NCBI GenBank assembly: GCA_038087875.1
Contig: CM075989.1
Location: 15,378,001 to 15,442,000 of the forward strand
DNA length: 64,000 nucleotides
From: Malacoraja senta
Taxonomy: Eukaryota
Direction of reading: 5' to 3'
Program-made: the position numbers and the translations under genes
In this document: positions 3,273-64,000 of the stretch, in pieces
How positions within the stretch are numbered: position 1 is the first letter of the stretch
How the letters are laid out: the number at the start of each line of letters is the position of its first letter
The notes under the pieces: generated by a model
The model's database searches: none
What the model saw: the letters and a program-made list of their open reading frames with translations, nothing else
Told to the model about the DNA's origin: nothing

Positions 3273-3452
3273 CTTTTGATGTACTGGTATATGATGAAAC
3301 CATTGTGGTACATCCAGTTGAAGATGGTGATAAACTTGATGTATTATTTCCAGATCCAGCTTCAATTTTTTTTGATTTCTTTGAACCAATATTGTTTATC
3401 TCACAGGCTGCTGGGCGCTTGTTACTGACATTTGTGCTCTGGGCTGCACTTG
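3273..3452 (-). CDS. ZNF280D: ZNF280-like coding exon 6 (180 nt, phase 1-1); gene continues beyond the left edge
   Basis: TTTCTCACAG acceptor; (A)SAAQSTNVSNKRPAACEINNIGSKKSKKIEAGSGNNTSSLSPSSTGCTTMVSSYTSTSK resembles recalled ZNF280D SKRPSTSEVNNVNPKKPK...AKG; weak donor AAG|GTTTTT. Confidence 0.8.
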
Positions 3453-4244
3453 CTGTGAGAAAGAAAATAAATTACTTTTAAAACATATTACATTAAAAAT
3501 TAATTTAATTGGGTTTATACTGCAACTTTAAAAAAAATAATTTTGATTTTTTAACAGCTGTAGCAAAGAATAAACTATCCAATGAAATGGTTCAGATACT
3601 GTCATATTTAGCAATCAATAAATTTGTTTGACCGTTAAGGAAATTATAATCTAAACTAATTACATTAAAGAAGAAAAAGTTATTACGAAGATTTTCAACT
3701 GATAAAAATGTGAAAACAGTTCAAGCTTGGTCTCTCAAATGGAACTCAGTACCTTGGAATTTTCTGATGGGACCCTGCCTATAAACAGGATATGAACAGT
3801 TTTGCAGTTGCTACTGCTGTGTGGCAGTTTACTGTTTGGACAGTTAACAAAATAGAACAATGTTTAATGTAAATTTCAGTAGTTAAAATCTGCCAGCCAC
3901 TCAAAGTCTGAAGAAGAGCCTTAACCTGAAACCTGTCTGCCCATTTTGCAGCCGAGATGCTTCCTGACTCGCTGAGTTTCTCTATCAGTTTGTTTTTTAC
4001 CCCTAATTATTCGGTATTACTTTTATTCTCCCCCCAATAATACAAAAAAAAGCCACATAAAAATAGGAAGATAGAATCTGATCAAAAGCTATACCAATTC
4101 TGGAACTACAGATATTTGCCTAAACTGTAGGGATGAGGACATGCAGTGTTTATTTATCAGAACAAATCTTGTACTCCAAGGTTAAATTAGATGGAAAACC
4201 TGTAGAAGCTAAGATTATTTTACCCAGAATTTATAAAACTGTAA

Positions 4245-5052: not shown

Positions 5053-5644
5053 AATTAAGGATAATCTGATTCAAAGTTTTCAATATTAATGGGAAAAGAT
5101 TGGTAAATGGAGTCTAAGAATTGATGGGGACATTAATAGAGGAACCAAGTCATTCATGTGTGAAGTCAGAGCAAACAGAAAATGTTAGAACTCTAAACTC
5201 CCTTCTGCAAAAGGAAATTGATGCTCGGTCAGTTGCTGATGATAAATCTTAGATTGATGTATTTGTATTACCAAAGAGCTATGTGGGAAAGACAGGTAAA
5301 TGATATTTCATCACAAATCAACTATGATCCTACAATGGCAAACAGGGTTGATGGGGGGAGGGATTCAAAGGACAAAGTCCTGCTCCTGGTCCAATGCTTG
5401 CTTCTGCTTTGCTGTAGTTTATTTAATATACTTCAGCCATATTTTTGTTCCTTGGTCTCCAAATCTTAATCCTTTCTACCCTTGTTTTACTATTTGATAC
5501 AAATGTTTCATGGCAATCTTTCAAAGTTTATTGAACCTCTTCCCCCCCTTCAAACACATCTTGCATATTCTAGAAATAGCAGCTTTTAAACAGTGGGTTT
5601 GATTGTTTTCAATTCCTTCACTGCCTGCTCCAAAATTCATGCTC

Positions 5645-8600
5645 AAGATTCAAGAGTTTATTGTCATGCGTCCCAGATAGGACAATTAAATTCTTGCTTT
5701 GCTTCAGCACAACAGAATATAGTAGGCATGAATACAGAACAGATCAATGTGTCCATATATCATTATATAAATATATACACACCTGAATAAACAGATAAAG
5801 TGCAAATAAACAGATAATGGTCTATTAATGTTCAGAGTTTTGTTTGAGTTGAGTTTAATAGCCTGATGGCTGTGGGGAAGTAGCTATTTCTGAACCTGGA
5901 CGTTGCAGTCTTCAGGCTCCTCCTGTACCTTCTACCTGAAGGTAGCGGGGAGATGAGTGTGTGGCCAGGATGGTGTGGGTCCTTGATGATGCTGCCAGCC
6001 TTTTTGAGGCAGCGACTGCGATAGATCCCCTCGATGGTAGGGAGGTCAGAGCCGATGATGGACTGGGCAGTGTTTACTACTTTTTGTAGTCTTTTCCGCT
6101 CCTGGGCGCTCAAGTTGCCGAACCAAGCCACGATGCCACCGGTCAGCATGCTCTCTACTGTGCACCTGTAGAAGTTAGAGAGAGTCCTCCTTGACATACC
6201 GACTCTCCGTAATCTTCTCAGGAAGTAGAGGCGCTGATGTGCTTTCTTTATAATTGCATCAGTGTTCTCAGACCAGGAGAGATCTTCAGAGATGTCCACG
6301 CCCAGGAATTTGAAGCTCTTGACCCTTTCCACCATCGACCCGTTGATATAAATGGGACTGTGGGTCCCCATCCTACCCCTTCCAAAGTCCACAATCAGTT
6401 CCTTGGTTTTGCTGGTGTTGAGGGCCAGGTTATTGTGCTGGCACCATTTGGTCAGTCGGTCGATCTCTCTTCTATACTCAGACTCGTCCCCATCAGTGAT
6501 ACGTCCCACAACAGTGGTGTCGTCAGCGAACTTGATGATGGAGTTCGCACTATGACCGGCTACGCAGTCATGAGTATAGAGTGAGTACAGCAGGGGCTGA
6601 GCACGCAGCCTTGAGCTGCTCCCGTGCTGATTGTTATCGAGGCTGACACATTTCCAACAATACGATCAGTCTGTGGTCAGTGAATGAGGAAGTCGAGGAT
6701 CCAATTGCAGAGGGATGCGCAGAGACCCAGTTCTGCGAGTTTTGTAACCAGCTTGGAGGGGATGATTGTATAAAATGCTGAGCTGTAATCAATGAATAAC
6801 AGCCTGACATATGAGTTTTGTTGTCCAGGTGGTCCAGAGTGGAGTGGAGAGCCAGTGAGATCGCATCCACCGTTGATCTGTTGTGGCGGTAGGCGAACTG
6901 CAGTGGGTTCATGTTTTTGTCGAGGTAGTTGTTTTGCACCATGATCAACCTCTCAAAGCACTTCATCACCACCGACGTTAGTGCCACTGGTCGATAGTCA
7001 TTGAGGCACGTCACCTTATTCTTCTTGGGCACCGGTATAATTGATGCCCTTTAAAAGCAGGTGGGAACCTCAGAAGTGAGAAGTTGAAAATGTCCGTAAA
7101 AACTCCAGCCAGTTGGTCCGCACAGGTTTTTAGAACACGACCGGGTATACCATCAGGTCCAGGCGCTTTTCGAGGGTTCATCCCTCTGAAGGATTTTCTG
7201 ACGTCGGCCTCTGTGACTGACTGAAATACCATCACAGCGAATGGGGGCTCGAGAAGGCACATCAGTGTTCTCCCTATCAAAGCGTGCGTAAAACGCAATG
7301 AGCTCGTCAGGGGGTGATGTTTTGCCGATATTCGAGCTACCTCCTGATTTCGCCTTGTAGGAGGTGATTGCATTCAGGCCCCGCCAAAGCTGCCGAACAT
7401 CTGTCTCTTCCTCCAGCTTGGAGCAGGTCCCTTTTGTCCTTTTTGATGGCCTTACCAAGGTTGTATCTGGACTTCTTGTAGACCACTGTATCATCAGACA
7501 TGAATGCCCGGTGTCTGGTCTTCAGAAGAGTGTGGATCTCAGTGTTCATCCAAGGCTTCTGTTTGGGAAACGCTCGGAAGGTATTTGTAGGGATGCAGTC
7601 CTCCACACATTTCTTTATGAAGTCTGTAACGACTGTGGCATATTCATTCAGGTCCGTTGCCGAGTCCCTGAACATTGCCCAGTCTGCAGACTGCAAACAG
7701 TCCTGGAGTTGTTCCTCTGCCTCCCCTGAACAGCTCTGCACAGTCCTCACCTCTGGGGGTGCGCTCTTCAATTGCTGCTTGTAGGCAGGAAGAAGCATGG
7801 TTGGTATGGTCGGATTTACCGAAGTGAGGGCGAGGGATAGAGCGATAAGCATGCTTGATGGTGGTGTAGCAGTGGTCGAGGGTGTTTGGTCCTCTGGTGC
7901 AGCAGGAGACATGTTGGTGGAAGTTAGGGAGCGATTTCGTACGGTTTGCTTTATTGAAGTCCCCAGCTATGGTGGCAAACGCCTCGGGGTAAGATGTCTG
8001 GTGTTTGTTGACCATGGCGTGCAGCTCCTCCAGTGCCAGACGGACGTCTGCCTGGGATGGGATGTAGACCGCGGTCAGAATGATGGAGGTGAATTCCCTC
8101 GGAAGGTAGAAGGGGGCGACACTTCACCGCCAGATGTTCGAGGTGTGGAGCACCACGCAGAGTTGACCATGAGGCAGACGCCCCCTCCTATCCCTTTCCC
8201 AGATGCCTGCGTACGGTCCATATGGTGGATGGAGAACCCTTTAGGCTGGACCGCTGAGTCTGGGGAGCTGGGGGTAAGCCATGTCTCTGTGAAACAGAAC
8301 ACAGAAGGATAAAAGGGAGAGGGGGCCGAAGTCCTCTCCGCTTCAGTCTGACCTGTAGCCCTGCCCGACGGCCACGTTTCCGTACTCCATGGAGCCCTCC
8401 TCGGTGTTTGAACGTAGAGTACTTACGGGTCTCCGCGTGATCGGGGAATCCCCTGAGATCGGGAATTCCCATACAGTCTGCACCTCCAGCTCCGTTGCTG
8501 CTGGGGGATCCTGGCCGACGGCCTCGATTCTGGACTCTGTGAAGGCCTCCCCGGTGTTTGCAGGTAAGGTTCTTACTGTACCTGCGCGCCTCCGCGAGGT

Positions 8601-8818
8601 TGGGGATTCCCTTCTGATCGGGGATTCCCTTACCAGCGCTAACATTGCGAGTTCTCAGTTGCGCTAATGCATTTAAATGCATTAGCAGCTCGCTACTTAC
8701 AGCGTTGATTTCAGTGGTTTTTCTGATGCAGGTGAATTCATAAATGCTGTATCTTACTGTTTTTCTTTGTGCCGTTCGCAAAATATCGCCGCAGGCAGGC
8801 GCCATCTCAGGCACTTGA
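5645..8818 (-). mobile_element. Near full-length, frameshifted Rex1/Babar-type non-LTR retrotransposon (APE endonuclease plus RT)
   Basis: ORF fragments with [49 protein letters not shown] and KFLG; 5' GAGATGGCGCC; (CTTGAAT)-type 3' tail. Confidence 0.92.
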
Positions 8819-9347: not shown

Positions 9348-11089
9348 CTATGGATAACAAAAAAGGATCAAATCATCACAAATTATCAATTAACTACTCA
9401 AATCAAACTAAAGAGAGCTCCATTAATTTAATTTTGGTTGTTTGAATGTATAAAATTCAACTTTCACATCAGTGCCTATTAGACTTTCTCGTGAAATGCC
9501 ACTTTCCAAATCACTGTACAAAAATAACTGTTTCATTGAGCAAAAAAAGCAAAGTGCTGGAGGAACTCGGATTCGTTCCAGCATCCGTAGTCTCATGCGT
9601 CTCCAATAATTTTTAATCTGAGAACAATTTGCTTTGATGTAGAACAATCCTCATTTTGGTTTCAAAATATTTCCACTCCTTGTGACCTCACAGCTCAACA
9701 TGTCAGTTCTCACTTCAGTTCTCAACATGTCAACACTTCAGTTCTCAATGCTCTTCCATAATGGGAACTTGGAATAGACTATCCGGCTGCATTGGGAAAA
9801 TAAAAAATTGGCAAGGAAGTTGTGATACCTGGTCAAGAGCTTGGTGGGAGAAGAGTTTATGTTCCAGCTTGTGTTCCAGGTAAGTCACTAGACTCGTAAA
9901 TATTATAAAGGTTTTTTTTGTAAGAATTAAATATATCCAGCAAGCTGGCCAAGTGTGTCGATTGTGGCAAATTCAGCCAAAGATGTGAATGTAGAATGAT
10001 GCACTTCTGAACGAGGAACCTAAACCATGAATGCATAACTAAAGTGGCCATTAATTAAGCTAGACAATGGAAACAACTGAAACCTCACTGCACTGGATGT
10101 GAAGCTATACTCAGCCAAGCTGATTAAAAGCGGCAATGTTCAGATTTGTTAAATGGCAATGTTTGGACTAATAAGATTTGGTTTACAATGAGTGATCCAA
10201 ACTGAGTGATTGAGGCAAGATTCTTAAATCACTTAGACTGATGCAGTAAAGGACAGAATAAGTATTGCAGGGCTCGAAATTAGCGGTTGCCCGGGTGCCA
10301 TTGACCACAGAAAGTGCCTCCGGGCAACCTAAACGGCGACTCATTTTGCCCGGCTTGGCACCCAAATACTGGTTTATACCGGTAGACGCAAGAAACTGGA
10401 GTAACTCCGCGGGTCAGGCAGCATCTCCGGCGAATAGGAACTGACATTTCGGGTCGGCGACTGTATTCCTCTAGGATCTTTGATTGCGGGTCAAAGATAC
10501 TAGGTGTGTGGTGACGAAGGGTCGGGGCGAATGACGGGCCCCGAACAGCGGCTCCACCGCCTCCTCCTCCCGCACCCCGCCCGGCGGAAGAAGGCCTCCC
10601 TCTCCCTCCCCCCCCCCCTCCTCCCGGCCTCGGCGTGCGAGAGGGGGTGTCTTGAAAGCGCCTTTTGCAGATTTGCCATCAGCGGCTCCTATCGCCCTGA
10701 TAACGGTCGCTGCTTGCAACTCCACTAACGCTGCTTTCAAACCAACCCCTCTCGCACGCCGAGGCCGGGTGGAGGGAGGGAGGGAGAGAGAGGGACGTCT
10801 CCTTCCGCCGTCTGAAGCAGCTGCACGACAGATCCTATAGCTATAGGATCTTTGAGCTGCACCGCTCAGCCCCGCACCTTGCTGTCGGCTGGCGGAGGAG
10901 GGGAGGTGGTGGCGAGGAGGCGGCGGCACTTTGCCGTTGGACAGGGACGGACAAGGCAGCGGGGCGATGTTGTCCGAGGAGCACTGACCTTCCTTCTTCC
11001 CCACCTCCTCTGCCACTTCCCCCCCCCCTTTCTCTCTCTCTCTTGTACGCCCCCCTCCACCCCTCTTATCCTGGGACCCCCCCTCTCCA

Positions 11090-11720: not shown

Positions 11721-12515
11721 TGACATCCCCCGTGCTCTCCCCTCACAATTTTACATACTCCAACCAACACGTACTAATTCACCTGCCTCAATCCATCCAT
11801 TCCGCATCGATTGCCTTCTCAACACCCCCCCCCCCCCCGCCATCTATCCACCCTGCACTGATTCACACACCCCATGACCCTATTGTGCTTCATGGTCTTC
11901 AGAGCGAACATTGATTATGTTTGATAACGGAATGTAATCAAATGTGTTTTAATTCCCAATGTTATTATTTGTTTTGACACCTTTAAACATATTACCAAAA
12001 GAACATTTGCTGCAGTTATGTCCTTTGGCCATCTCTTGTCAGTTAGTGTAATGTTTAACCTGTCAGATGGGTATAGTCGGTTTTAACAGCTATTATCATA
12101 AAATGTCTTTAGAAATTTCCTTGCAACCTGTATATTTTGTTCTGGATAAATTATGTGGGAAGCCAGACTGTTTCTGTGCCAATAGCAATAACGACCCATG
12201 CTATGGCCATGTCATGGTAATTTCCGGTCCTTCACAGAAAACATGCTTGCATCAATCTATAGTGTGCATGGTTAAGCATATATGTTACCATGGTCCAGGA
12301 TTTATTGACGCAGGTTGATCATATGCTGAATAATCCAACCACATTTTTGTTTGGAAGTGGAAAGAACTAATAGAAATTGCATTAATTGCAATATGTAAAA
12401 AGAGTTGAGATATTGTATTATAATTTTGCTGCATGTCATTGTGGTATATATCATGTCTTGATTGGTGAATATGTTTAGTTTGTGAGTTATTTGAAGCAGA
12501 AATAATATGTGAATG

Positions 12516-12732
12516 TAGACAAAAGTGCTGGAGAAACTCAGCGGATGCGGCAGCATCTATGGAGCGAAGGAAATAGGCAACGTTTCGGGCCAAAACCCTT
12601 CTTCAGACTGATGGGTTTCGGCCTGAAACGTTGCCTATTTCCTTCGCTCCATAGATGCTGCTGCACCCGCTGAGTTTCTCCAGCACTTTTGTCTACCTTC
12701 GATTTTCCAGCATCTGCAGTTCCTTCTTGAAC
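12516..12732. mobile_element. Inverted Penelope pLTR mini-insertion with 14-bp TSD
   Basis: ~84-bp inverted arms (12515-12598 and 12613-12697); ATAATATGTGAATG duplicated at 12502-12515 and 12733-12746. Confidence 0.88.
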
Positions 12733-25949: not shown

Positions 25950-26176
25950 ATATAAAAAGCTGGAGTAACTCAGCGAAACAGGCAGCATCTTTGGAGAGAA
26001 GGAATGGGTGGCGTTTCGGGTCGAGACCCTTCTTCAGAGACCATTCTGAAGAAGTGTCTCGATCTGAAATGCCAGCCATTTCTTCTCTCCATAGATGCTG
26101 TCTGTCCCACTGAGTTACTCGAGCTTTTTGTGTCTGTCTTCAGTTTAAACCAGCATCTGCAGTTCCTTCCTCCACA
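25950..26176. mobile_element. Inverted Penelope pLTR pair
   Basis: Head-to-head copies of CTGAAGAAGGGTCTCGACCCGAAACG...GAGTTACTCCAGC; imperfect flanking repeat CTTGTA(A/G)ATA(T/C)AA. Confidence 0.8.
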
Positions 26177-28214: not shown

Positions 28215-28965
28215 CAGAATCAGAATCAGATTTTATTCGCTAAGTATGTTTTGCAACATATGAGGAATTTCACTGGCCAGGTCAGTCAGACAATTAAAAG
28301 CAACAGACTCAAAAACACATTTTAACATGAACATCCACCACAGTGACTCCTACACATTCCTCACTGTGATGGAAGGCGAAATAAAGTTCAAGTCCTTCCC
28401 TTTTGTTCTTCCTCTGTCGTGGGCCTCGAGCCCTCCGTTGACGGGATGATCTTGACTCCCGTAGCCGGTGGCGTTGGGGCCCTCCGCGTTGAGGCGTTCA
28501 GCTCCCGCATCGGGGGGTTGTCAGCTCCCCGTGCCGGGCGATCGAATCTCGCGTCGGGGCTGGTCGAACCTTCTGCAGTGTTGGAGCTCCCGACTTGCCT
28601 CTCCCGAGACTGCGAGCCCTTGATGGTAAGTCCGCAGGCAAGGGATCCGCTCCGATGTTAAGTCCGTGCCCCGCGGTGGGGCTCACGACAGTCCGAGGTG
28701 GCTTCCAGCTCCAGCGATAGTAGGCCGCAGAGCTCGGGGAATGTGATCCGAAAAATGATCACATCTCCAGGAAGGTAAGAACCTGAAAAAAAGTTTCCCC
28801 CGATCTCCCCCCCCCCCCCACCACATAAAACAAACCGAAGTACATTAAATCAAACTTTTAAGAATAACACAAAAAAAAACAAAAAGATGAGAAAACGAAC
28901 AGACTGCCGGCAGGGCTGCCATCTCCCCTGGCGCCCCTGGTGGTCTATGCGCCCCTGGTGGTCTA
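28215..28965 (-). mobile_element. Non-autonomous LINE-derived retroposon A (central hairpin, (CTGATT)n tail)
   Basis: Shares head and central motifs with 55492-56318; simple-repeat tail at 28215-28230. Confidence 0.7.
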
Positions 28966-29269
28966 CACATAGTTGCATTGGGGGTTGGTTGTTGGAGCAC
29001 AGTTGACAATTAGGTCCAAGAACCTTCATCAAGGTCCAAGTTTCTTTGTGCAAAGGTAACAAATACATCCTTTTATTTTACTTTACTTTCACATTAATAT
29101 CATTCACCATTTATTTTTCATGATCATCTGTTTTTTCACCTCATAGTAAATGCAAGTAGTTTGCTCTTTCCACCAGAAATCTTATCAGAAACTACATGGA
29201 CTTCATTGAATTTTCCTTTCATTAACCATCAATGCAATTTTAACAACCAACCCCCGATGCAACTAAGTG
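28966..29269. mobile_element. MITE with ~28-bp TIRs and CAC..GTG termini
   Basis: CACATAGTTGCATTGGGGGTTGGTTGTT ... AACAACCAACCCCCGATGCAACTAAGTG; no TSD visible. Confidence 0.7.
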
Positions 29270-29636
29270 TCGAAAAGAACTGCAGAGGCTGGTTTATACC
29301 AAAGATAGATAGACACACGGCCACCCCCTCCCTCCACAAGAGCCATGGGATCATCTTAATTAGATTTGTGGCCGATTCCAGTAGAGCAGCATGTATCAAT
29401 GGGGAGGGCAGTATTTCAGACTGATTTCTGGCACAACAGCTCTCTAGTACATTTCCATGCATAATGCTATAATATTCCTTATCAGCACTGATTTCATTAA
29501 TGACTGTTTCTGGGGATGCATCCTGTACATTAAGATACCAATACATTAGGTGTGCAATTTATCATAACTTTTCATCACAATCTGCAACTATCAACCAGAT
29601 AACAGAATGCAACAGCATACCACTGCAGGGCTAATT

Positions 29637-32576
29637 GTAGCGATATTACAAAACCTACCTTCAGCGGCGCTGCAGATCTGCCACGGGCTGTGTGCGCGAC
29701 TTTGGCGCCTTTGAGGGGGGGGGGGGGATTAAAATGCAGGTTTGTATCGCTTGTCAGAGTGGGATTTCCTCGGGCTGCTAGTCGATGAAGAAAAATTTGG
29801 TTTAATTTCCGTTCCCGGTTTTAAAAATAGATAAATAAATGAATAAAGAATAAAAGATAAATCGCTGGACAATTTAATAGTTGGATTAAAGTAAAAAGCG
29901 ACTTCTAACGCTCTCAACGCCTTCAACGTGACGGATCGTAATATCAGGACAAAACAAAGGGTAAGTCGTTTATTTCACACATTATCTTGCTTCTTGGGGT
30001 GGCTTTAGTCTAATTTTACGACGCGAAAATGTTATTTAGTCCCCAAACGATTAGGCCATGTCTTTGCCTGCCGATATGGGGTTAAAATTCACGGCAACGG
30101 CAACGTTCGAATCGATCGCATTTCAGAAACACCCACTTCGCAAGATGATTTAAATCCTCATTTTTTTTGGACAATCATGTCATAAGAGCATTTAAATCAT
30201 CTATATTTTGTGTAATTGTCTATCCACAATCAATATTTTTATACTAAATATTCACAACAGTTTTAGTCACATGTATTGTGCAAAAAATAATAATTTTGAT
30301 TATATTGAGAGTCGATGTTTCTAGATTAATTTATGGGAATTGAACATTAAATTCCTTCATGACAGTGAGATTTAAAAATCATGTTATATTGTGAATTCTT
30401 GTGTGAATGGGATTAGTTTGTTATTTGGATACTTAGGCTATTTTTAAAAATTGAGCCTTTTCTTAAGAAATAGATAGATGTTTAGATCTAGTAATTCAAT
30501 TTAGATGAATTTAATTGATTAGATGATTTTAATTGATTTGATGAAACTGATGAATATGATTTTTTTGTTGGGTATTGACTATTTGTTTTAGCGTTTAACT
30601 TTATCATTTCTACCTTTTTTCTAAAACTGCAAATAATAACTTGTTTCTGTTAATGCTGTTCAGTGTTTTTTTTCCCTTTACATTTTAAACAGGTGTCTCC
30701 GAAGAAGAAATGCAAATTTGTCAACCCAAATGCCCAGCAAAAGAGACTGATTTAGACAGCATTCACAGAGCTTATCCAAATTTGGACTACTCCAAATGTG
30801 ATGATCTACAGGACATTCTTAATGGGAAAGTAGTGGGCAGAAAGGCATGTCATGCGTAGTTTGGAGAGCAAAAACCTGTAGTTTACAATGCCAAAATTGA
30901 AAAGTTGAGGAAAAACAAGGTGTACAGAGTTGATTATTGGTTACAATCTGAGGAGTATGATGATGCTACTGATTATGATATGCCAATGTACCAGCTAGCA
31001 ACTGATCTTCTCCATAAAGACTTGGTCTATTGGTAGAAATTGTAATTTATTTACCTATCTGTTACGGACTTAATAATAATAATAATGAATTTTATTTATG
31101 GGCGCCTTATACCGAGGTCTCAAGGACACCTTACAGAGATTTATGGTTAACATATAATCAGAATAATCAGAATTTTCAAAAAAATAAGTTATAAAGACCA
31201 ATACACAAATCAGGGACAGAATTCCTTCCAAAAACACAAAAAAAGAAAATCAGAAGCACAATTTGAGGAGAGAGCAGCGGCTACGAAACCGCGCCAGCGT
31301 CCACTCTCCCCTCCGACTGCCATCTTGAACACAGACTAACAAATACAATTACAAACAATTACATACAAAAATCATCCCCCCACAGTGATTTCCACTGTGG
31401 GGGAAGGCACAATGTCCAGTCCCCAACCCCAGTTCACCCCAAAAAGTCAGGCCAAATGAAGCCCCCGCTATTGCCTCTACGGAGGCCCGATGATCCTGGC
31501 CGTTCTCGCCGGGTGATGTAGCCCCGGCGTCGGGAGAGTCCTCCAGCAGCTGGGCCACCTGGAACGGCCGCACCCCTCACCGGAGGCCGCAACTACGGCT
31601 GGAACGGCCGATTTCCCGCAGGCGTCCGCAGCACCCGACAGGGCCGCGCCGATTTGGAGCTCAAAGCTCCCGATGTTGGAGTCGGCGCCGCCGCCCGCGG
31701 CTGGCCGCTCCACAGTCCCGCAGCCCGGAGGTGTTGAGCTCGGCGGTCCAGCTCACCGGAGCTCCAGCGCGTCGGTCCAGCGCGGCGACCCAGGCAAGGC
31801 ATCGCCCGCTCCGCTGCACAATAGCGCTCCAGCGCCGTGCCGCCACCGAAGCTGAGGGTGCTGTGCGACCCCCGTCGGGAAACGCCGCTCCACGCCGCTC
31901 CACGCCCGCTGGTAGGCCGCGAGGACGGGTCGACTGGGCAGCCGGAGAGAAGGCTGCCTCACCGATGTGATTTCCCCTTGTTCCCCCCACATCGAAATGC
32001 AAAATGAAGAAAAACAGAGACTTAAATAAAAACTAAAAACTAGAAACAAAAGTACAATTAACGGACGGCTGCTGTTTGGCAGCCGTTCCTCAAGATGGCT
32101 CCTCCCAAGATGGACTTACAGCATATAATACAATAATATTAAAGTTCTGATCTTGGGAATATCACATTTTTGAATTTTTAAGGCAGTCTGGGTGTTTATT
32201 ACGGTCTTCACTTATTACGGTCAATTTTGTAATTAGCTACAATTAGGTAACTAACTAATTATATGCTTTAATTTCAGTTCATCCAAGTAAGATGTTTCAT
32301 ATTTGTTTCAGAATGCTTCAATCTATAATAACTGAAAATTTCATTCAGTTCTCTTAATTTTTAAGAAAGTTATGGGCTTTTGACTGTCCTCGATCACAGC
32401 TTTTGTGTTAAGTCAATGGAAAAGCAATAGGGAACAAGATGCTGATTTCCGAGTATGAAAATGGCCATAACTTTTTTAATACCGAAGATATGAAAGTGAA
32501 TTAGGTATCAAATTAAACTTCTGTTTATGCTTTATCTGATGGGGTAAATTGCAGACTTGATTTTTTAAATTGCTAC
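29637..32576 (+). mobile_element. Non-autonomous DNA transposon copy 2 (GTAG..CTAC termini, 5-bp TSD TAATT), superfamily unresolved
   Basis: TAATT at 29632-29636 and 32577-32581; ~17-bp TIR GTAGCGATATTACAAAA; internal donor at 29961 and terminal exon remnant 30693-31036; interrupted by a retroposon at 31073-32111. Confidence 0.8.
31073..32111 (-). mobile_element. Non-autonomous retroposon C (central hairpin, L2-like (ATT)n tail) with 7-bp TSD
   Basis: GGACTTA duplicated at 31066-31072 and 32112-32118; the empty site GTTACGGACTTACAGC is present in copy 1 of the host element at ~1012-1027. Confidence 0.82.
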
Positions 32577-33033
32577 TAATTGGACCCAAATGAGTAAGTC
32601 AATAATCTATATGTTTCCTTAACTCGGTTGTAAAACAACTAAAGAAGACAACAAACCCAGAACAACAAATATATATTAAAATAATGAATTCAATGTCAAA
32701 TCAGGTAAAAGTAAAATAAAGATTAGACTAAAATAGGAAATCAAAACAAAATAACGAATATTTTTTAAATAGGTCTCAAAGTTGCTGGCATGACTATAAA
32801 AAAATACTTTCAGTGGTAGAGATTGTTTGGCAGTAATTAAGTTATACCACACTATTAAAAAGGCTCTAAAATTATGTAAAGTTACATATGCAAGATGCCA
32901 ATGTGTGCAAATGCAGCACAACTCAGACTAAAACTTGCGCGTTCATATTTGCACTTGCAAGATGTCACTGATCAATTTGTGCAATAAGTGAAGATAGGTT
33001 CACCATTACTTTCACAGTGAAATCTAGGATCTA

Positions 33034-34630
33034 CAGTGCATTCAGAAAGTATTCAGCCCCCTTCACTTTTCCATTTTGTTACGTTTACAGCCTTATTCTA
33101 AAATGGATTAAATTCATTTTTTTAATCATCAATCTACAATACCTCATAATAAAAAAGCAAATACAGGGTTAGAAATTTTTGCAAAGTAATTTAAAAGAAA
33201 TAACTGAAATATCACATTTACACAAGTATTCAGACCCTTTACTCAGTACTTTGTTGAGGCACCTTTGGCAGCGAATATAGCCTCAAGTCTTCTTGGGTAT
33301 GACGCTACAAGCTTGCCACACCTGCATTTGGGTAATTTCTCCCATTCTTCTCTGCAGATCCTCTCAACCTCTGTCAGGTTGAATGGGGAGCGTCGATGCA
33401 CAGCTATTTCCAGGTCCCTTCAGAGATGTTCGATCGGGTTCAGGTCCGGGCTCTGGTGAGCCACTCAAGGACATTCCCAGACTTGTCACGAAGCCACTAA
33501 TGCGTTGTTTTGGCTGTGCACTTAGGGTCATTGTCCTGTTGGAAGGTGAACCTCCGCCCCAGTCTGAGGTCCAGAACGCTCTGGAGGAGGTTTTCATCAA
33601 GGGTCTCTCTTGCTCTTTTCATCTTTCCCTCGTTCCTGGCTAGTCTCCCAGTTCCTGCCGCTGAAAAACATCCCCACAGCATGATACTGCCACCACCATG
33701 CTTCACCGTAGGTATGGTATTGGCCAGGTGATGAGCTGGTTTCCTCCAGACATTACACTTGGCATTCAGGCCAAAGAGTTCAATCTTGGTTTCATCAGAC
33801 CAGAGAATCTTGTTTCTCATGGTCTGAGAGTCCTTTAGGTGCCTTTTGGCAAACTCCAAGCGGACGGTCATGTGCCTTTTACTGAGGAGTGGCTTCCATC
33901 TGGCCACTCTACCATAAAGACCTGATTGGTGGAGTGCTGCAGATATAGTTGTCCTTCTGGAAGGTTCTCCCATCGCCACAGAGGAACTATGGAGCTCTGT
34001 CAGAGTGACCTCAGGCTCTTGGTCACCTCCTTGACCAAGGCCCTCCTCCCCCGATTGCTCAGTTTGGCTGGGCGGCCAGCTCTATGAAGAGTCTTAGTGG
34101 TTCTAAAGTTCTTCCAGTTAAGAATGACGGAGGCCACTTCGGGACCAGCAACGCTGCAGAAATTGTTTTATACCTTTCCCCAGATCTGTGTCACGACACA
34201 ATCCTGTCTCGGAGGTCTACAGGTAATTCCTTCGTCTTCATGGCTTGGTTTTTGCTCTGACATGCACTGTCAACTGTGGGACCCTATATAGACAGGTGGA
34301 TGTGTGCCTTTCCAAATCATGTCCAATCAATTTAATTTACCACTGGTGGACTCCAATCAAGTTTTAGAAACAACTCAAAGATAATCAATGGAAACAGGAT
34401 GAACCTAAGCTCAATTTTGAGTGTCATAGCAAGGAGTCTGAATACTTATGTAAATGTGATATTTCAGTTATTTCTTTTTATTTACTTTGCAAAAAAATTC
34501 CTGTTTTCGCTTCTTCATTCTGGGGTAGATTGATGATTAAAAAATGTATTTTAATCCATTTTAAAATAAGGCTGTAACGTAACAAAATGTGGAAAAAGTG
34601 AAGGGGCCTGAATACTTTTTGAAAGCACTG
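33034..34630 (-). mobile_element. Full-length decayed Tc1-like transposon (second family, long ~200-bp IRs)
   Basis: TA|CAGTGCATTCAGAAAGTATTCAG...GAATACTTTTTGAAAGCACTG|TA; ORF 33497..33979 has [25 protein letters not shown] and FQQDNDPK. Confidence 0.95.
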
Positions 34631-36169
34631 TATACACACCTCATAATGCACTGTTAACTTATGATAATTTGTCTGCAGAGTGAGTGTATGATTTAATTTT
34701 TTTATGAACAATCAAAATCACCTGAATGCATGTGTATTTAGGAGATGCGATGAAAAGTCAATGTTATCCATATTAGTCCTATAACGTATTCTGGCGCCTC
34801 TCTCTGCAACTTCATTCATCTTTCAAATCACTTACAGAATAAAATACAACTATTTTTAAATCAAAAGCACTGTGTAGCAAATAATTATTTTCTTATCCAC
34901 TAGCACTTCAATGCAAGACAACTGGGATAGAATACTTCATGGGGTAAGAACTATTCCATCAACAGCTTGGTAATTGCTGTTCTGGAGATGCAGAGGATAG
35001 TATCCACTCACACCATCAGGTGTTTTTCCAAGGATCAGTTTTATTCTACATGCACGTTTCCTATTGTTAAAATGTAGACGCTGTGAAACAATAATACTGA
35101 TAAAATATTAACACTGAAATACGGTAAGATTAGAAATCTATTCAGCTTTATTTTGATAAATTCATTGGAACATTTCTGGATGTACTGTTCAATTTGTCAT
35201 TCTCTACATTCCAGGTAAGTACATCTGCACATGACATGTTTTGTTGGCACCTTAATGTAGTAACCTTCTTTGAGTGGGAGGGAGGGAAACAAAGGAAAGG
35301 GAACCATGGGAAAACACAAATAGTAAATACTTCAAAGCTAAGATCCTGGATCAGAATATCTGTACTTTTGGAAACTTGATTTCATGATTTTAACATGATT
35401 TAAAAAAGGCATCAAAGATTTCAACAAGCTCTTTATCTGTCCCAGTTATTTCAACTAAAAACAGTCAAACAGTAGGAAAATCAATTTTCATTCATTGCAC
35501 AAATCTTCATCCATAATCATCACAAAGTGAAAGTGCAAGTTCGTATAAGTGTTCATTTTAGGCCTTCACCACAATTTTCAATTTTGATGAGAAACTGGGC
35601 TGCTATTCCATCAAAAAACTTGTTGTTTCAATTAATTTAGAGCTGTTAATTTTTAAAGCTGCAATAAAATCCACGAGAAAAAGCAGCTACCGTTTTAAAG
35701 TTTTGCATAAAAGATCCATCAACAATTCAAACTAAAATATTATATTAATATGCAAAATTTAGCACAGACAACTAACTCTACAACCCACATCTGTAGAACA
35801 TTTAATGTACAAATGACTTAGGGTAATTTACAAAGTAGTAGGAATAGAATGGAGCATCAAATGTGAACAAGAATTTAGAATGAAGGCCGAGCCAAAAATA
35901 TTGCGTCTGAATCTGGCCACTTTTTTTTTTAAACAAAGCCAAGAGCAAAGCCAAGAAGCTTCTTCCAGGAACAGCCATTCCAGGTCAGACAAAGATTCAC
36001 ATGCACCACTTCCAATCTAGTTTTAGAGCAATCTGCAATTAGTGCTTCATATGTAGCCTCCTGTATATAGATCTCACCGATATACCCAAGCCCTGTCCGC
36101 AATGACCATACTGACCTCCAGTTGAATGTCATTTCAATTATTTTTCCAATTCCCTCACCAACTTCTTAA

Positions 36170-36405
36170 GGGCATGTCCCACTTTCACGACCTAATTCAC
36201 AACCTTTTTTACTCGTGGACATTTTTCATCAGGCTAGAAAAACGCCCTGACCTACTTGATGCCACGAGTACCTACGGCTAACACGACGACCTACCTACGA
36301 ACTACCTAGGACCTCCTACGACCTCGTGACGACCATGCTGCGAGTGTGAGTCAAGGGCAAACTCAGCAGAGGTCGTAAATTAGGTCGTAAAAGTGGGACA
36401 GGCCC
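36170..36405. mobile_element. MITE with a related TIR, flanked by TTAA
   Basis: TTAA|GGGCATGTCCCACTTTCACGACCTAATT...AATTAGGTCGTAAAAGTGGGACAGGCCC|TTAA. Confidence 0.8.
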
Positions 36406-36655
36406 TTAAGTCCTCAAATTTCTCCACTGCCAGAGTGCGGCCAAATACAAATTAGAAGAACAGCACCTTATATTCCACCAAGGTGGTCTACAACCTAATG
36501 GTATGAAAACCAAATTTTCCAATTTTAGGTAATCCACACTCCTTGTGCTCTGTTCTCACTCCTGTCTCCCACCCCTCCCCTGTCTCGAAGTTTAGTTCTG
36601 TCCTTTTTTATTCTATCTGCACATCATCTCCCTCTTATCTGGTTCTATTTATTAC

Positions 36656-37690
36656 CAGTGACGTGTGGTGAGGTCAATGGTTGGGGAGGCACTGGCTGGT
36701 ATCAGTGGCCCGGCCCTCCCTGTATTGTCACCGCGTCTCCCCGGGGAGAGGGATGGAGCCGGGGCTGTGTGCGTGAAGCACGGCAACTGGAGGGGCGGGA
36801 GCGTTGCCCCGGGACCATGAGGGAACGACCCACCTCCCCCTCTCCCCCTTCTCCATCACACCCCCCTCCCCCTTGCTTTCCCCTCCACCCCTCTACTCTC
36901 TCTCCATCCCTCTCTCTCCCCCCTCCACCCGGGGTAGATCTACCCGAGCCGAGAGTACATTACTCCAGCGCGGGGCCTCCTTAGGCGCAGGGCCCAATTG
37001 GGAGCTTTCAGCGGCCCAGAGCCTCAGAATTGGCCGCTACAAATCTGCCAGTCAGCGCCGCCCGCGGCTGGAAAGTCAGTGCCGCCAGCGGTGGAATCCA
37101 GTGCTGCGCCGCCGCTGCTGAAGCTAGCTAACGTGGAGGGAGAGTGAGGTAGCGTCAATTACGTGGGCTGAGCCTACGTAATTGACGCTCGCTCTCCCTC
37201 CACTGGGCTCAAGACACACCCCCTCAGTGAGGCAGATGTGATCGCCTGGTGCTTTTTCATTGCAGTTTTATGACGACACCAGCGAGCCTAAATTTTACAT
37301 ATTTATACGTGAAATAAGTTACCTGGACTATGGAAGGCGAGGACATGTAATTAACGGGTTTACAAACATTACATTGGTGACATACAGAGATAGTAACAGG
37401 CACACGCTTATTGCCCGCGGTCCATATAGTTTCTGAGAGGTTGCGCAATCAGAGGGGAGGCTCAGCTCGTCGCTGCCTCACCTCTCATCTCTCCTTGTAT
37501 TTGCAGCGGAGCTGCGCAAATTTGGCGATTTTGACTATAAAAATGATTAGATTCATATAGAAATGACATTTATAACGCAGATAAGTGGAAAAATCTTTAT
37601 ATTTATTTTATTTTATTATTATTTTTCTTTACTTTTTTTTTAACAGCTATTTTTATTGGGTGTATGACAGGTGAGGCTCTGCCTCCCTGT
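36656..37690. mobile_element. Probable non-autonomous hAT-type element (CAGTGACGTG.. end), right end truncated, inserted into Penelope remnants
   Basis: Starts CAGTGACGTGTGGTGAGG; GAGGC motifs at both ends; Penelope-derived sequence on both sides (36420-36655 and 37690-37945). Confidence 0.5.
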
Positions 37691-38756
37691 TTATTACTCT
37701 CCTTCTGCTTCCTCTTCTGTCTCCACTTATCTGCCAGCCTCTGTCTCTATCTACACTCTCCTCCCAATCTACCCGTTTTTAACCCTTCTTCTACCTCTCA
37801 CCCACCAGCCACCATCCCCCAACATTACCCATCAAGACTCTTCAGTCTGAAGAAGGGTCTCGACCCAAAACGTCACCCCATTCCTTCTCTCCAGAGATGC
37901 TGCTTGTCCCACGGAGTTACTCCAGCATTTAGTGTCTATCTCCCCATATCCTCATGGTGATTTAAGGAATGATCTGAACAGAATATTTAGACTTAAAACA
38001 TAAAGTTTCCTATCATGTATTCTACATTTTCGATGACATCATATTCTACTCATCAAATTAGTTTGTAACAATAATTTATTTATTTTTGCTAATACATATG
38101 TTATAGACCTCATTCTGATTATCCCCACACAATTTCTCATATTTATATGTTACCTTGAAATGTCACTGTTTTCTTAAGTAATAAGCATTTGTGCATGTCT
38201 GAAAGGCCTTTTGAAATGTAACTACACTATATTGTCATTGTAAATTTCACATAGTCTCTTGTGCCAAGCATGGATGCAGAGTGCAATTCAAATTGAGTAC
38301 AACTTTATCCATTGCTCCCACATTTGGTTACAATGTAAATTCAATGCAGGGCGCTAATTTGATCAAAAAGTTAGAGTGCGTTCAGTAGTAAGTTGATTGA
38401 TAGGTATCATAGCATTATTCTTGTGGTATAGTTTTTATTCTTTTCTCAACAAAATAGAGGAATGGCAAGGCTCCTCAATCCTATTTAATGCACCTCTGCT
38501 TATGGGCAATGCCGGATGCTATTCACATCCTGGACAACTGCAGATGCACAAAATGATATCAACAGGAAGAGCTTAAAGATTTTAGTCCTTGAAAAGCATC
38601 ACTTACCAGATCCATGTCTGATCGTTAGCAGGATTATATGGTTCAGGAGAAATCAACACACAGCTGAAGTGGCAAAATGTAAAGAAGAAATGAGTGCCCA
38701 CTAGGCAGACATAGAAAACCAGCAGGTGCAGTCTCCCAAGTGTATCACATTTGCTA

Positions 38757-39115
38757 GTAAGTAAGTAAGTACATTTTATTTATATAGCACGTTTAAATCA
38801 ACTCGCGTTGAAACCAAAGTGCTTTACATAGAAAAAAAAAATTAAGTTTCCGTACATCCATAGAAAAATTAAAAAAAAAGAATAATGACACAACACATTA
38901 TAGAATTCAACATGAACGTCCCCCCCACAACAGAATCAAAACTTTCCACTGTGGGGAGAGGCATCAGAAAGTTTCAGTCCTCTTCCTCTGTGATCACCCG
39001 AGGTCGGGGCCTACTTGTGGCCTCCGCAGTCAGTCCGATGTTTTCAGGCCCTCTTGCCGGGAAGATAGAACTCCGGCGTCGGATGGACACTCCTCAGTGG
39101 CTTGGAAATGTCTGC
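38757..39115 (-). mobile_element. 5'-truncated retroposon D (hairpin remnant, L2-like (TTAC)n tail)
   Basis: Tail AAAGCACTTTGG...GTGCTATATAAATAAAATG(TTAC)n; CCCCACA/TGTGGGG stem at 38923-38956. Confidence 0.6.
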
Positions 39116-45010: not shown

Positions 45011-46665
45011 TAGATCTCCACTGTAGGATCTTTGGTCACCATGGCCTTATCCATTCATAGCCCTCTTTACCCGGCCTAAATGGCGACAACGCAACAGAAA
45101 CAAATCCAACAGAAGATAGACACAAAAAGTTGGAGCAGCATCTCTGGAGAAAAGGAATAATAGGTGATGTTGTTTCGGGTCGAGACCATTCTTCAAACTG
45201 AGAGTGAAGAAATCGACTATTTTTACACCACAATGTTTGTACTTACGTTTGAGCCTTGAAATAGTTGACTGGTACTTTATTAGTGACAAGTACCTGGAAA
45301 TAGTGAATTTCTTTGTTTTGCCTAAAATCCAGTAAAACGATATTATTTGTCCAAAATAAACTGCAGATACTGAAGATAGACATAAAATGCTGGGGTAACT
45401 CAGCGGGTCAGGCAGCATCTCTGGAGAAAAGGTGACGTTTTGGGATGAGACCCTTTTTTATTTCACTGGATTGCAGGCAAAACAAAGAATTTCGCTGTTT
45501 CAAGTTACGTGTGACTAATAAAGTACTATTTAACTATTTCAAGTAGTATGAGTGAGTCTCATCGTCTAGAGTGATATTAATACAAACCAGAATAACTTCC
45601 TCACAGCTTAAGGTAAAATGAATTAATTTTACTGAGAACTGCAGTGGCTGGCTTAAAATCGAAGGTAGACACAAAATGCTGGAGTAACTCAACGGGTCCG
45701 GCAGCATCTCTGGAGATAAGGATTGGGTGACGTTTCGGTGAAGACCCTTATTACTTTTACTGAGTTTTCAGTTATGAAGACCTGAGGGTCTGCTTGACTC
45801 GATAAGGCTCTGGTGTCTTAATTCGCCTCAGTCTTTCCATTCTTTTCCTCAGTTTTTGCCTTTAGGCTTTTGTTGCTGTCAAGTCCCGATCTATACTAAA
45901 GGAACCCCTTCCTCAACAAGATGTATTTTGGGATTAGTAATGAAGCATGCCTCTGCACTCTTGGTGAACACTTTTTAAAAAATCTTCCAGGCTTGTTATG
46001 ATTTGGCCATTTTTTGCTTTGTCTTCATTTATGTCAGACTTGTTTCTTCCAGTCCATCTATGGTTTAAAAACTTGTTACAATGAGAAAGAACCAGGAGAG
46101 AACAAGTATTTTCAATATTATGAATTAATCATTAATTACGTTAAGCATACCATCAAGTTCTCCTGGGGGGGGGGGGAGGAAGCATTACACACCTGGATTT
46201 TCTAGTGTCAGTTTGCTATAAAGTTTTGATGGCATTTGATGTCTAATTTTCTTAATGACTATCATTGTTTTACAATTTAAGATTATTGCTGTGTCCTGAA
46301 AGAGATGATTTTTTTTCCATTATACTGGCAATACAAAAATTGGAAATATAGACTAAACTCTCTATGAGCCATAAATAATTCAACATTTTTAAGATACGAC
46401 ATCTTATAACATGGCCCCATAGCAGAAGCGTCCTCGTCGCGGGGCTGGAAACTGGAAGTATCCTGAACTAATTCTGCTACCACCTTGCGACAAGTGATGG
46501 CTTCCACTGATTGTCGCCGGAAGCTTGCGTCCTTTTCAGGACGGATGATGACAGCGAGGTCAACATTTGTAACAAGATGGACACGAAAAGAAGAAGATAA
46601 CATTATGACTATTCATCCGATAACGTCTAAAATCTGTCTCATTGCATTGGATTGTGTGTTTTATT

Positions 46666-54520: not shown

Positions 54521-55491
54521 TTCCATTTTGTGCAGTCAATCTCATCTTTAAGCCACCAGAAATTAGACAATTATCATTCTAGTCTCAAATGTTGCCTTGG
54601 CTCCAGCCTGAGGCACAAGGTTTTTCATTTCCTTTACTGAGCTGTCTTATGCCTATGAGAGTAAAATTGTTATTTCAATGCAAAATCATGCCGATTTCTA
54701 AGTTTTGCGTTACTGGTGCATGGCTGTTAGAAATGAGAGAAGATAAAGCTGCTTGCATTAATTCCACATACAATGTTTATATACAACAGACGAATTTAAA
54801 GAATATTCCCAAGTGCATGACTAACCTTTCAAACTATTTAAATGGAAAGTTAACCATCTCTTGGAGACCTATAGTCGCTGTAGTATGCATTAGGGGAAAG
54901 GGGTCTAAGGCACACCAGCACAATTAATCAACGACGGTTTCATGTCAGGATCAGGCTACACTTGCATGTTTAGCTGTTATTATGCATGCAAAACAAAACT
55001 CCACAAGCTTATGATGCCATAAAGAGTTTTACACAGCCATCCAGTTACATGGCACTCCTGCATATATTTCTAGCCATATGCACATCTGAGAAACTATACT
55101 CTGGAGGCCAATGTCTCAATAAAAAAGGAATAATTTCCTGGAATATTGTTGTAAATTAAACCATGGGAGCAAGCGAAGGGGCCAGAGATACAAACGGATA
55201 ATTTTTAAAATGGTAAGAGTGATCAAGACTTCTGGGTATAAGTGGGATGAATTAAGAAATAATTCAATGCAGAAATGAAGAAATATTAAATCATTCTAAA
55301 ATGCTAAATTATGATGAACAGGACATCCTTGCTAATGTGTATAGTTACACAGAAAGGGTATTAACTGCTGCACAGCTTAGCAAGCAGTAAGATTGTTCCT
55401 CTAGACAAAACCTTTTGCTTATCTTTCGTCATTTGCATCGTACAAAATAGCAGTACGGGTTTCCCTAACTGAGGAACACCTTAATCGATAT

Positions 55492-56318
55492 GGTTCAATG
55501 GTCCTTTATTGTCATGTGTACTGAGGTACAGTGAAATTTGATTTACTGTACAGTCATACCAAAGAAGTAACAAGATACAAAACGACATAAAGATTAAACA
55601 TAAACAGCCACCACTGTGGCGTCTGAGAATCCCTTGGGCACACAGCATAAGCGGAGACCAACAGCCATCAGTTCAATGTCCTGGCCACACACACGCTCCT
55701 TCACCATGATGTGACCAGAGTTCTACTGTCCGCTGTCACTCTCTCTGCAGTCCCTGTCCGCCCGAACAGTCAGAAAGCCGTCCACATTCGCACCAGACTC
55801 CAGGATATTCTCATGGCGCGATATCCATGCAAACATCGAGATCACTGCACTCACGGCAATCCCTCCGAGCCCTCACCAGTGCAGGCAGCACTCCATCTTT
55901 TTCATCACATTCCCCACTGATGGAAGGCAAATAACTTTTACCACCTTTCTTCCTTTTCTCCCGTGGTCGGGGCGATCGAAGCTCCCACAGTCAGCGATCT
56001 AAGCCCCCGCATCGGGGCCATCGAGGCTCCCACGATCGGGGCGGTCGAAGCTCCTGCGTTTGGAGCTCCCGCAGTCGATCCCTAACAAAGGGACCCCCAG
56101 CTCCACGATGTTAGGCCGCAGTGTGGATGGAGATACGATACGTAAAAAGTCGCATCTCCGTCGAGGGAAGAGATAAAAAAAGTTTCCCCACACCCCCCAC
56201 ATAACACAAAAACTAAAGGTACACTAAAACATAAAAATAATACAGAATAAAAACAACAAAAGATGAAGCGGACGAGACAGGCTGTTGGCGAGGCTGCCAC
56301 TTATGGTGCCACCCGGTG
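55492..56318 (-). mobile_element. Retroposon B, retaining an APE endonuclease fragment (55598-55930)
   Basis: Head as in element A; translates as ...ALVRARRDCRECS...VDGFLTVRADRDCRES...GHIMVKERVCGQDIELMAVGLR..VPKGFSDATVVAVY. Confidence 0.78.
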
Positions 56319-62419: not shown

Positions 62420-63507
62420 TACTTGAGGCATTTGAAGTAGATAATGGTGCAAAGAATTGAGAACAAATTAGTGTTGAATTAGAAAGTAGAGAGTGCTGAT
62501 AAATGGAGGCCTCCTCTGTAAACAGTTGCACCAGGGTTTGTTCCTAGCGTTCTCTGTTTACACATCATATATGACAGAGCGCAGTACAGTAACATGTTTA
62601 AACAAATCGTTAATGACATCAAATGATAGTGCTTGGAAACTGGCGGAAGAAAGTCTAATAATGGGAAAAGGAACAGCTATAAACAAAAGAGCAAAGTAAT
62701 ACTTAATGGATTTTAATGTGGAAAAGTGCCCTGTTATTCAATTTGGAGCAGGACACACGATTGTAAACCTAATGAGCATGGGCCATTTAAAATAAATTGT
62801 TGGGTTAAGGCAAAAATGGTCAGGGAAGGGTGGCACATCGGCATTGAAACAAAAAAAAGTAAAATTGACCATGATTTTAAAACAAAGTCAAATCATGGTG
62901 GAGTGAATGGTAGCTAATGTAACCCCACTTTTTAAGAAAACAGGGAATTATAGACCAGTTAGCCTGACATCGGAAGATGTTTAAGTTGATTATTAAAGAT
63001 GTAATAGCAGTGACAAGCAGTGACAGGATCAGTCAGTCAGCAAGGATTTATGAAGGGAAAATCATGCTTGACTAATAGACAATAGACAATAGGTGCAGGA
63101 GTAGGCCATTCGGCCTATCGAGCCAGCACCGCCATTCAATGTGATCATGGCTGATCATCCACAATCAGTACCCCGTTCCTGCCTTCTCCCCATATCCCTT
63201 GACTCTGCTATCTTTAAGAGCTCTGTCTAATCTTCTGGAGTTTTTTGAAGAGGAAACAAGTACAATGGATGATCGGGGAGGGGCAATGGGTGTGGTATAT
63301 CTGGATTTTCAAAAAGCCTTTGACAAGGTCCCGCATAAGAGATTAGTGAGCACATGGTATTGGGGGTAGGGTATTGACATGGATAGAGAACTGGTTGGCT
63401 GACAGGAAGCAAAGAGTAGGATTTAACGGGTCCATTTCAGAATGGCAGGCAGTGACTAGTGGGGTGCCGCAAGGCTCTGTGCTGGGACCCCAGTTATTTA
63501 CCATATA
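62420..63507 (+). mobile_element. Degenerate CR1 RT fragments, with an antisense CR1 3' end nested at ~63078-63226
   Basis: ANVTP.FKK, NYRPVSLTS, YLDFQKAFDKVPH and WQAVTSGVPQGSVLGP motifs; the nested tail is flanked by CTAAT. Confidence 0.85.
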
Positions 63508-64000
63508 CAATGCTCTCCATAATGTTTGGGACAGACCCATCATTTATTTATTTGCCTCTGTACTCCACAATTTGAGATTTGTAATAGAAAAAATCACATG
63601 TGGTTAAAGTGCACATTGTCAGTTTTTATTAAAGGCTATTTTATACATTTTGGTTTCACCATGTGGAAATTACAGCTGTGTTTATACATAGTCCCCCCCA
63701 TTTCAGGACACTTGCCCCCTTAATGCTGGTACAATACAGTTCTCAGCACCTAGTCTTTACTCCAGTCTTTCCATCACCTGTGGAAATGTTTATTGCTGTT
63801 TATCAACATGAGGACCAAAGTTGTGTCAATGAAACTCAAAGAAGCCATTATGCGACTGAGAAACAAGAATAGAACTGCTAGAGACATCAGCCAAATCTTA
63901 CGCTTACCAAAATCAACTGTTTGTAGCATCATTAAGAGGAAAGAGCACTGGTGAGCTTCCTAATCACAAAGGGACTGGCAGGCCAAGGAAGACTTCCACA
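63508..64000 (+). mobile_element. Tc1-like transposon of the same family as 1481-2939; runs off the right edge; inserted into a CR1 fragment
   Basis: TA|CAATGCTCTCCATAATG left IR is the reverse complement of 2710-2939; transposase start ATGAGGACCAAAG at ~63808. Confidence 0.9.

Follow-up and report, generated by a model that had tools for sequence, protein, structure and literature searches.

A 64,000-nucleotide stretch of the Malacoraja senta genome (contig CM075989.1, positions 15,378,001 to 15,442,000, hereafter called the window) carries four related minus-strand retroposons, which we designate A, B, C, and D. We propose, with a probability of roughly 0.7, that these elements are internally deleted derivatives (short internally deleted elements, or SIDEs) of a long interspersed element (LINE) of the Rex1 lineage, and that some of them have exchanged their 3′ tails. 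An earlier reading made from the letters alone (the sequence-only reading) had described a hairpin core joined to different 3′ ends, and had likened this core to the central domains shared within the CORE, V, and Deu families of short interspersed elements (SINEs). Our results uphold the homology of the elements and the joining of a shared core to unrelated 3′ ends. They do not support an ancient covarying core of this kind, because its two parts appear to correspond to stretches of a Rex1 endonuclease open reading frame (ORF) separated by about 300 nt, and the covariation comes down to one base pair.

The shared core takes the form of a hairpin in A, C, and D (Table 1). A single search pattern matched the stems of these three elements and nothing else (three sites in 64 kb, compared with none in 100 shuffles). 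When the hairpins were folded within their whole elements, the central stem pairs had probabilities of about 1.0, and when the hairpins of A, C, and D were folded alone, they differed modestly from shuffled sequences (z scores of -2.1, -1.7, and -0.9, respectively). Pattern search and whole-element folding thus bear out the three stems where they had first been noticed. The GCCT flank and the downstream GATG or GACG are also present, in part overlapping the end of the stem. Of the two pair-preserving changes previously listed between A and C, the change from A-U to C-G is indeed two-sided and sits within runs of C and G, whereas the change from U-G to C-G alters one side of the pair. Covariation is not demonstrable, since there are only three copies and one two-sided change, and an Rfam scan of all four elements matched no family. 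In a comparison that was set aside because its alignment and structure were partly out of register, 186 of 500 shuffles reached the single two-sided change. The hairpins of A, C, and D are nevertheless homologous, and they lie within multi-copy noncoding retroposons.

Element B, for which the sequence-only reading gave no coordinates, was taken to be the copy at 55490-56314, outside the interval (28215..39115) that holds the other three. Its hairpin arms are apart: 296 nt separate the 5′ arm at 55928 from the 3′ arm at 55618. Translation of this intervening sequence, which is interrupted by frameshifts and a stop codon, gives the start of an apurinic/apyrimidinic (AP) endonuclease. A full phmmer scan with the insert returned 61 proteins at E values of at most 0.001, unlike word-indexed searches with the pieces of B, which returned nothing. 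Pfam analysis of 11 of these proteins identified RVT_1 in five, an Exo_endo_phos family domain in five, and ALKBH8_N in two. In Pfam, the fragment of B itself had no match, nor did it match the Rex1 element of the window in a pairwise comparison. A local hairpin considered for B (z = 0.13 when folded alone) was rejected for lack of support in whole-element folding.

Alignment of the protein matches of B led to L009, a LINE that is close to complete and has a single long ORF. At the DNA level, positions 55958-55630 of B are colinear with the endonuclease start of L009 (z = 20; 0 of 500 shuffles), and the alignment spans the 5′ arm. The 12-codon deletion of B recurs in P0121 and P0147, two short proteins that come from other contigs, and the broken form of B is therefore multi-copy and has spread as a family. 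The parent of the insert appears to belong to the Rex1 lineage, whose members have a single ORF encoding an AP endonuclease and a reverse transcriptase (RT). This assignment is made because L009 has a single long ORF, because of the Pfam domains of relatives, and because TakFla_Rex1-3 and PolSen_Rex1-12, consensus elements classed as Rex1 in a curated set, carry both the head and the endonuclease-start codons. L009 is an intact-looking vertebrate Rex1-type LINE (positions 1-3482) that makes up an entire contig of a bacterial metagenome-assembled genome, and the contig is most likely host contamination in that bacterial assembly.

The two arms of the hairpin in A can be matched to the two ends of the ORF remnant in B. 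The core of A aligned with the 5′ arm of B (z = 9.5) and with its distal arm (z = 8.9); these z scores, and those for all pairwise alignments of heads, bodies, cores, and tails below, derive from 200 shuffles each. Without any gap, the 3′ arm of A agrees with the last codons of B at 20 of 24 nt, and the next-best site in the window reaches 16. Read as codons, the 5′ arm and loop of A give PSITVRNV, and the 3′ arm gives VTVVDVHV. The former ranks third among 127,948 positions when scored with an eight-column endonuclease profile (columns P to V, picked after looking). With a profile of the downstream motif, the end of B ranks first and the 3′ arm of A ranks 60th. Because the arms match both ends of the remnant, the hairpin core is most likely a self-pairing junction left by a deletion in a Rex1 ORF, rather than an ancient SINE domain.

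An independent and ancient structured core of the CORE/V/Deu type, which selection maintained while the tails attached to it changed, would require the endonuclease sequence of B to be put down to later capture by template switching and to chance likeness. Such a core would account for a hairpin retained in three otherwise diverged bodies (the A-C body alignment is not significant), for one two-sided change and several G-U-type changes that break no central pair, and for contigs of sequencing run X18 that attach the stem of A to other upstream and downstream sequence. However, chance would have to produce likeness to the Rex1 ORF at two ordered sites about 300 nt apart, and the conserved NV codons can still be read in the unpaired loop. 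Furthermore, homology covers the head and body as well as the core, three copies give no test of covariation, and no Rfam family matched. We therefore consider this explanation rather improbable. Persistence of the hairpin in three diverged bodies does hint at selection, and a junction origin permits a passive explanation. The hairpin may thus be kept by selection, for RNA folding or RT binding, or it may be a passive junction.

Table 1. Features of the A-D family and a comparison element (positions in the window)
Feature	Coordinates	Strand	Remarks
Element A	28215..28935	minus	Rex1-type head, T-rich tract, GC-rich body of degenerate repeats, hairpin, tail with AATAAA and short microsatellite; 5′ boundary approximate
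Hairpin of A	28335..28372	minus	arms 28372-28362 and 28345-28335; 16-nt loop
Element B	55490..56314	minus	head and body as in A, hairpin arms apart, Rex1-type tail
Decayed start of Rex1-type AP-endonuclease ORF in B	55597..55958	minus	frameshifts, one stop, 12-codon deletion; runs from 5′ arm to 3′ arm
Element C, full length	31073..32111	minus	1039 bp; head, body, hairpin, second head, non-Rex1 tail with (ATT)n
C target-site duplication, 5′ copy	32112..32118	minus	7 bp
C target-site duplication, 3′ copy	31066..31072	minus	7 bp
Hairpin of C	31377..31403	minus	11 bp; 5-nt loop
Second LINE-type head in C	31230..31329	minus	AAGATGGC and T-rich tract
Tail of C	31073..31140	minus	hairpin, AATAAA, (ATT)n
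Element D, 5′-truncated	38757..39112	minus	body, hairpin, T-rich tract, non-Rex1 tail with (TTAC)n
Hairpin of D	38923..38956	minus	three inner pairs of G-U type
Near-full-length Rex1 LINE of another lineage, broken	5640..8807	minus	tail used for comparison

Homology among the elements is wider than the core (core alignments, z = 5.8 to 9.8) and includes the head and body. The claim that A, B, and C share a head holds over a long alignment for A and B (z = 27.7) and is weaker for C (z = 8.7 with B and 4.3 with A), whose values rely on the T-rich tract. Bodies aligned between A and B (z = 12.8), C and D (7.9), B and D (5.6), and A and D (4.7), and no significant alignment was obtained for the A-C and B-C bodies. 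The GC-rich body of A and B is built of degenerate repeats of approximately 23-24 nt. The top repeat lags are multiples of three in B (24, 45, and 69) and not in A, a signal that is too weak to use.

The head layout of A, B, and C is common to Rex1 5′ ends, with a likeness that is statistically modest when the T-rich tract is set aside. L009 starts with ATGGCGCC, followed by GTGGCAGCC, CAGC, and a T-rich tract. With this tract included, the comparisons of the A, B, and C heads with L009 gave 1, 0, and 0 of 500 shuffles, respectively. We also compared the first 400 letters of each consensus in the available part of the PMC13343379 supplement, where all four matches listed for the GTGGCAGCC head motif are Rex1 5′ ends, and where TakFla_Rex1-3 and PolSen_Rex1-12 combine an A/B-type head motif with the same endonuclease-start codons. 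The sequence-only reading had proposed a LINE-derived head without a tRNA portion, and this proposal is supported. Rfam found no tRNA, 5S rRNA, or signal recognition particle RNA in the elements, and no pair of A and B boxes fitting the general box consensus was present in the heads. The sole ARAGORN prediction, a tRNA-Arg at 31544-31626 on the minus strand, falls about 490 nt inside C, in the GC-rich body and not at the head, and is probably false given that Rfam had no tRNA match.

Element C contains a second head beginning with AAGATGGC at about 31329, as had been noticed earlier. Its comparison gave 1 of 500 shuffles with the T-rich tract and 15 of 500 without it. Skate L2 and Rex1 consensus heads both begin like AAGATGGC in the available part of the supplement to PMC13343379, and the second head of C may be of Rex1 or L2 origin. 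Because the 3′ module of C has a AAGATGGC head of its own, two deleted LINEs may be joined in C as a dimer.

Several observations count against descent of the family from a Rex1 LINE by deletion. Without the T-rich tract, the likeness of the heads to L009 is weak (14, 4, and 108 of 500 shuffles for A, B, and C, respectively), and the head of B ranks second among 3196 windows, behind an unrelated site. The A/B head occurs in 0 of 19 little-skate Rex1 consensus starts (the first 400 letters in the available supplement, with several consensuses 5′-truncated), and therefore the exact Rex1 parent is not among the consensuses compared. The GC-rich body did not match the N-terminal region of L009 or that of the window's Rex1 element. 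Direct comparison of the A, C, and D cores with L009 gave no significant alignment; the link goes by way of B, through which the deletion route for these three elements would have to be traced. Under the full 14-column endonuclease profile, A drops to rank 325, and neither C nor D was outstanding in the profile scans. Whole-element folding predicted no long-range pairing of the homologous arm segments in B or L009. Finally, the tail of A matched neither of the two Rex1 tails in the window.

The limits of C can be given precisely. A second copy of its host repeat (window positions 1-1452) is precisely without C, with the empty site at 1017-1023, and this fixes the ends of the element and its 7-bp duplication (Table 1). 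Contigs of runs X3 and X5, which represent two other organisms, likewise connect 31056 to 32113 across the site of C. For D, a 5-bp target duplication is a candidate, and for A, no target duplication of at least 5 bp was found in the flanks. A perfect 18-bp tandem duplication (28931-28965) is located at the 5′ junction of A. The host of C is a multi-copy repeat (29643-32566), and its copy at 1-1452 is also without a 330-bp segment (30474-30804), which a contig of run X18 omits too.

Between about 37,500 and 41,000 contig pieces per DNA run aligned to the 4-kb stretch containing A and C, and parts of this stretch were matched by sequencing runs of 10 organisms. Single-position variants in A and C were found in dozens to more than 100 contigs per run in three organisms. 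Among the variants listed, none fell at a stem position that would have given a reading of covariation. The contig depth of A and C was approximately four orders of magnitude above that of unique flanks, and stem bins were deeper than most body bins, although depth is a hint only and cannot rank the parts. The elements are multi-copy and transpose as units. No RNA datasets are listed among the runs matching the stretch. Scans of viral contigs gave no match, and comparison with phages gave none either. Eight metagenome matches were dismissed as chance, each being 46 nt or shorter and without flanking homology. An open frame in the body of C received only low Atlas scores.

These boundaries also bear on whether A through D are 5′-truncated or mis-delimited parts of an unsampled autonomous LINE with a long untranslated region (UTR) that includes the body and the hairpin. 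Although D is 5′-truncated and the body is unmatched among the Rex1 elements compared, the empty site bounds C on both sides, its 1.04 kb include the 5′ head of a LINE as well as a 3′ tail, and no RT sequence match was found in A, B, C, or D. We consider this explanation very improbable.

The sequence-only reading had described four different 3′ ends. The ends of C and D do differ from Rex1, but the tail of A resembles that of B, and the tails fall into two apparent classes: Rex1-type in A and B, and unrelated to Rex1 in C and D. The tail of B aligned with the 3′ ends of two Rex1 elements located in the window (z = 5.3 and 6.0), and the tail of A is weakly like that of B (z = 2.7; 5 of 200 shuffles). 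Moreover, 79 contigs depart from A at 28312 into a B-like continuation. L009 stops before its tail. The tails of C and D matched neither the tail of A nor the one Rex1 3′ end tested, and they could not be aligned with each other (z = 1.4). Each folds as a hairpin ahead of AATAAA, a putatively L2-like layout. Because the C and D tails appear unrelated to Rex1, at least one tail exchange is implied. Judging by tail type, the family may use several RTs.

Alternatively, Rex1 deletion derivatives might have acquired the C and D ends as neighboring or nested insertions, or as one-off reverse-transcription chimeras, with no functional tail swap. The dimer-like structure of C and its second head would suit this alternative, as would the failure of the C and D tails to align and the putative boundaries of D. 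In contrast, the 7-bp duplication of C encloses both of its modules, and a contig of run X5 from another organism spans the stem and second head (31237-31439, with 30 differences), which places this junction at more than one locus. We hold this alternative to be improbable as well. The 3′ module of C (31106-31371) was nearly uncovered in runs X3, X5, and X18 whereas the body was covered; with depth taken as a hint only, this pattern could reflect a lineage-specific tail.

The history that we propose for the family draws on established LINE biology: a LINE is transcribed from its head, its 3′ tail is recognized, and copying proceeds by target-primed reverse transcription and can involve template switching. 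The elements would have arisen as nonautonomous products of internal deletion in a Rex1-lineage LINE. They would have retained the 5′ end (with a presumed polymerase II promoter), a GC-rich stretch in N-terminal position, and the first endonuclease codons. Copies of the B type would keep about 300 nt of the decaying endonuclease ORF, and the branch leading to A, C, and D would have lost most of it. This loss would place the PS-I-x-x-GNV codons beside the x-VV-x-VY codons, and these partly complementary segments could then form the hairpin. For A and B, copying in trans by target-primed reverse transcription would presumably fall to Rex1 proteins. Template switching probably gave C and D a replacement 3′ end, with the new part in C being a second head-plus-tail unit, and this replacement may have moved both elements to L2 proteins.

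The window contains several other repeats. The RT (5832-6665) of the LINE at 5640..8807 shares 91% identity with a protein from a cluster in which there is a Leucoraja erinacea record, and the start of this LINE matches, by eye, the LeuEri_Rex1-15 consensus in the available PMC13343379 supplement. At 46401-46478 on the plus strand, we found a match to the hepatitis delta virus-like (CPEB3 family) ribozyme (39.6 bits, compared with a gathering score of 35), which is possibly a retrotransposon 5′ ribozyme and not a copy of the CPEB3 intron. A repeat of 60-190 bp is present in many copies (12511-12700, 25954-26129, 37820-37949, and about 15 further sites), some of them arranged as head-to-head palindromes, and presumably resembles Penelope-like terminal repeats with a hammerhead motif. 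Copies of a Tc1-like DNA transposon with terminal inverted repeats of about 210 bp and transposase remnants occur at 33032-34632, 1558-2941, and 63506-64000. Long inverted repeats are located at 10582-10810 (GC-rich, 78% self-complementary) and 45255-45543 (64%).

Internal deletion of the SIDE kind and tail exchange are both known processes. In the available portions of the papers cited here, the SIDE Persaeus derives from Zenon, a member of the CR1 group (PMC6740152), and RIME, NARTc, Bov-A, RTESINE, and R2 SIDEs are bipartite nonautonomous LINEs (PMC5786205). Like the A-D family, SIDEs join a LINE 5′ end and ORF start to a LINE 3′ end, have no polymerase III head, include a central region of unclear origin, and reach many copies. 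Unlike the SIDEs listed, the A-D family has a probable Rex1 parent, a surviving intermediate with a longer ORF, a junction hairpin, and an unrelated tail on some members. The sources of ORF-less bipartite LINEs named in the available text of PMC5786205 are RTE, Ingi, Vingi, and R2 only, and the available text of PMC6740152 makes no mention of Rex1. Rex1/Babar LINEs share with the A-D family the 5′ layout and the endonuclease N-terminus, and with B a tail of AATAAA and a short microsatellite (PMC13343379, PMC6274825). In contrast to those LINEs, the family has no RT, and its ORF survives as a broken remnant in B and as no more than a few codons in A, C, and D.

Exchange of tails or modules is described for the SINEs ERE4B, IdioSINE2, and WALLSI (PMC5786205), and the tRNA-headed SINEs CmiSINE and SacSINE1 of cartilaginous fish have a common L2 tail (PMC5499810). 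Such SINEs are like the A-D family in joining a common 5′ and middle part to 3′ ends from different LINEs, but their heads derive from tRNA or 5S RNA and their bodies from UTRs, whereas the A-D family has a LINE 5′ head and an apparently coding-derived core. The CORE, V, and Deu SINEs, represented in cartilaginous fish by HE1, SacSINE1, and CmiSINE, also combine a central conserved segment with LINE-type tails. Unlike them, the A-D family has no tRNA head or 5′ A/B box pair, its core has a probable ORF origin, and this core has so far been found in related genomes only. Among published papers, with Dfam and Repbase not covered, we found no description of Rex1-sourced SIDEs, of a coding-derived hairpin, or of the A-D family, which automatic skate repeat libraries may contain unlabelled.

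The A-D family would add Rex1 to the few clades that spawn such nonautonomous elements. It also affects the annotation of repeats in rays, where Rex1 is abundant and, in the little skate, makes up 6.6% of the genome (PMC13343379). The available text of PMC5786205 calls the origin of conserved SINE bodies enigmatic and offers the hypothesis that LINEs with internal deletions, mostly RTE, supplied them from their 5′ UTRs. In the A-D family, the parent lineage, an intermediate, and hairpin forms derived from it appear to be present together, and therefore the birth of a shared core and its selection are testable in skate genomes. We advance more tentatively, and as unlikely though worth stating, a high-copy, LINE-only superfamily of rays and skates in which a deletion in the Rex1 endonuclease made the hairpin and the core, then functional and under selection, persisted through tail swaps that moved the elements from Rex1 to L2 machinery. 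If true, this reading would show a conserved body domain of the SINE type at its origin in coding sequence, with B as the surviving intermediate.

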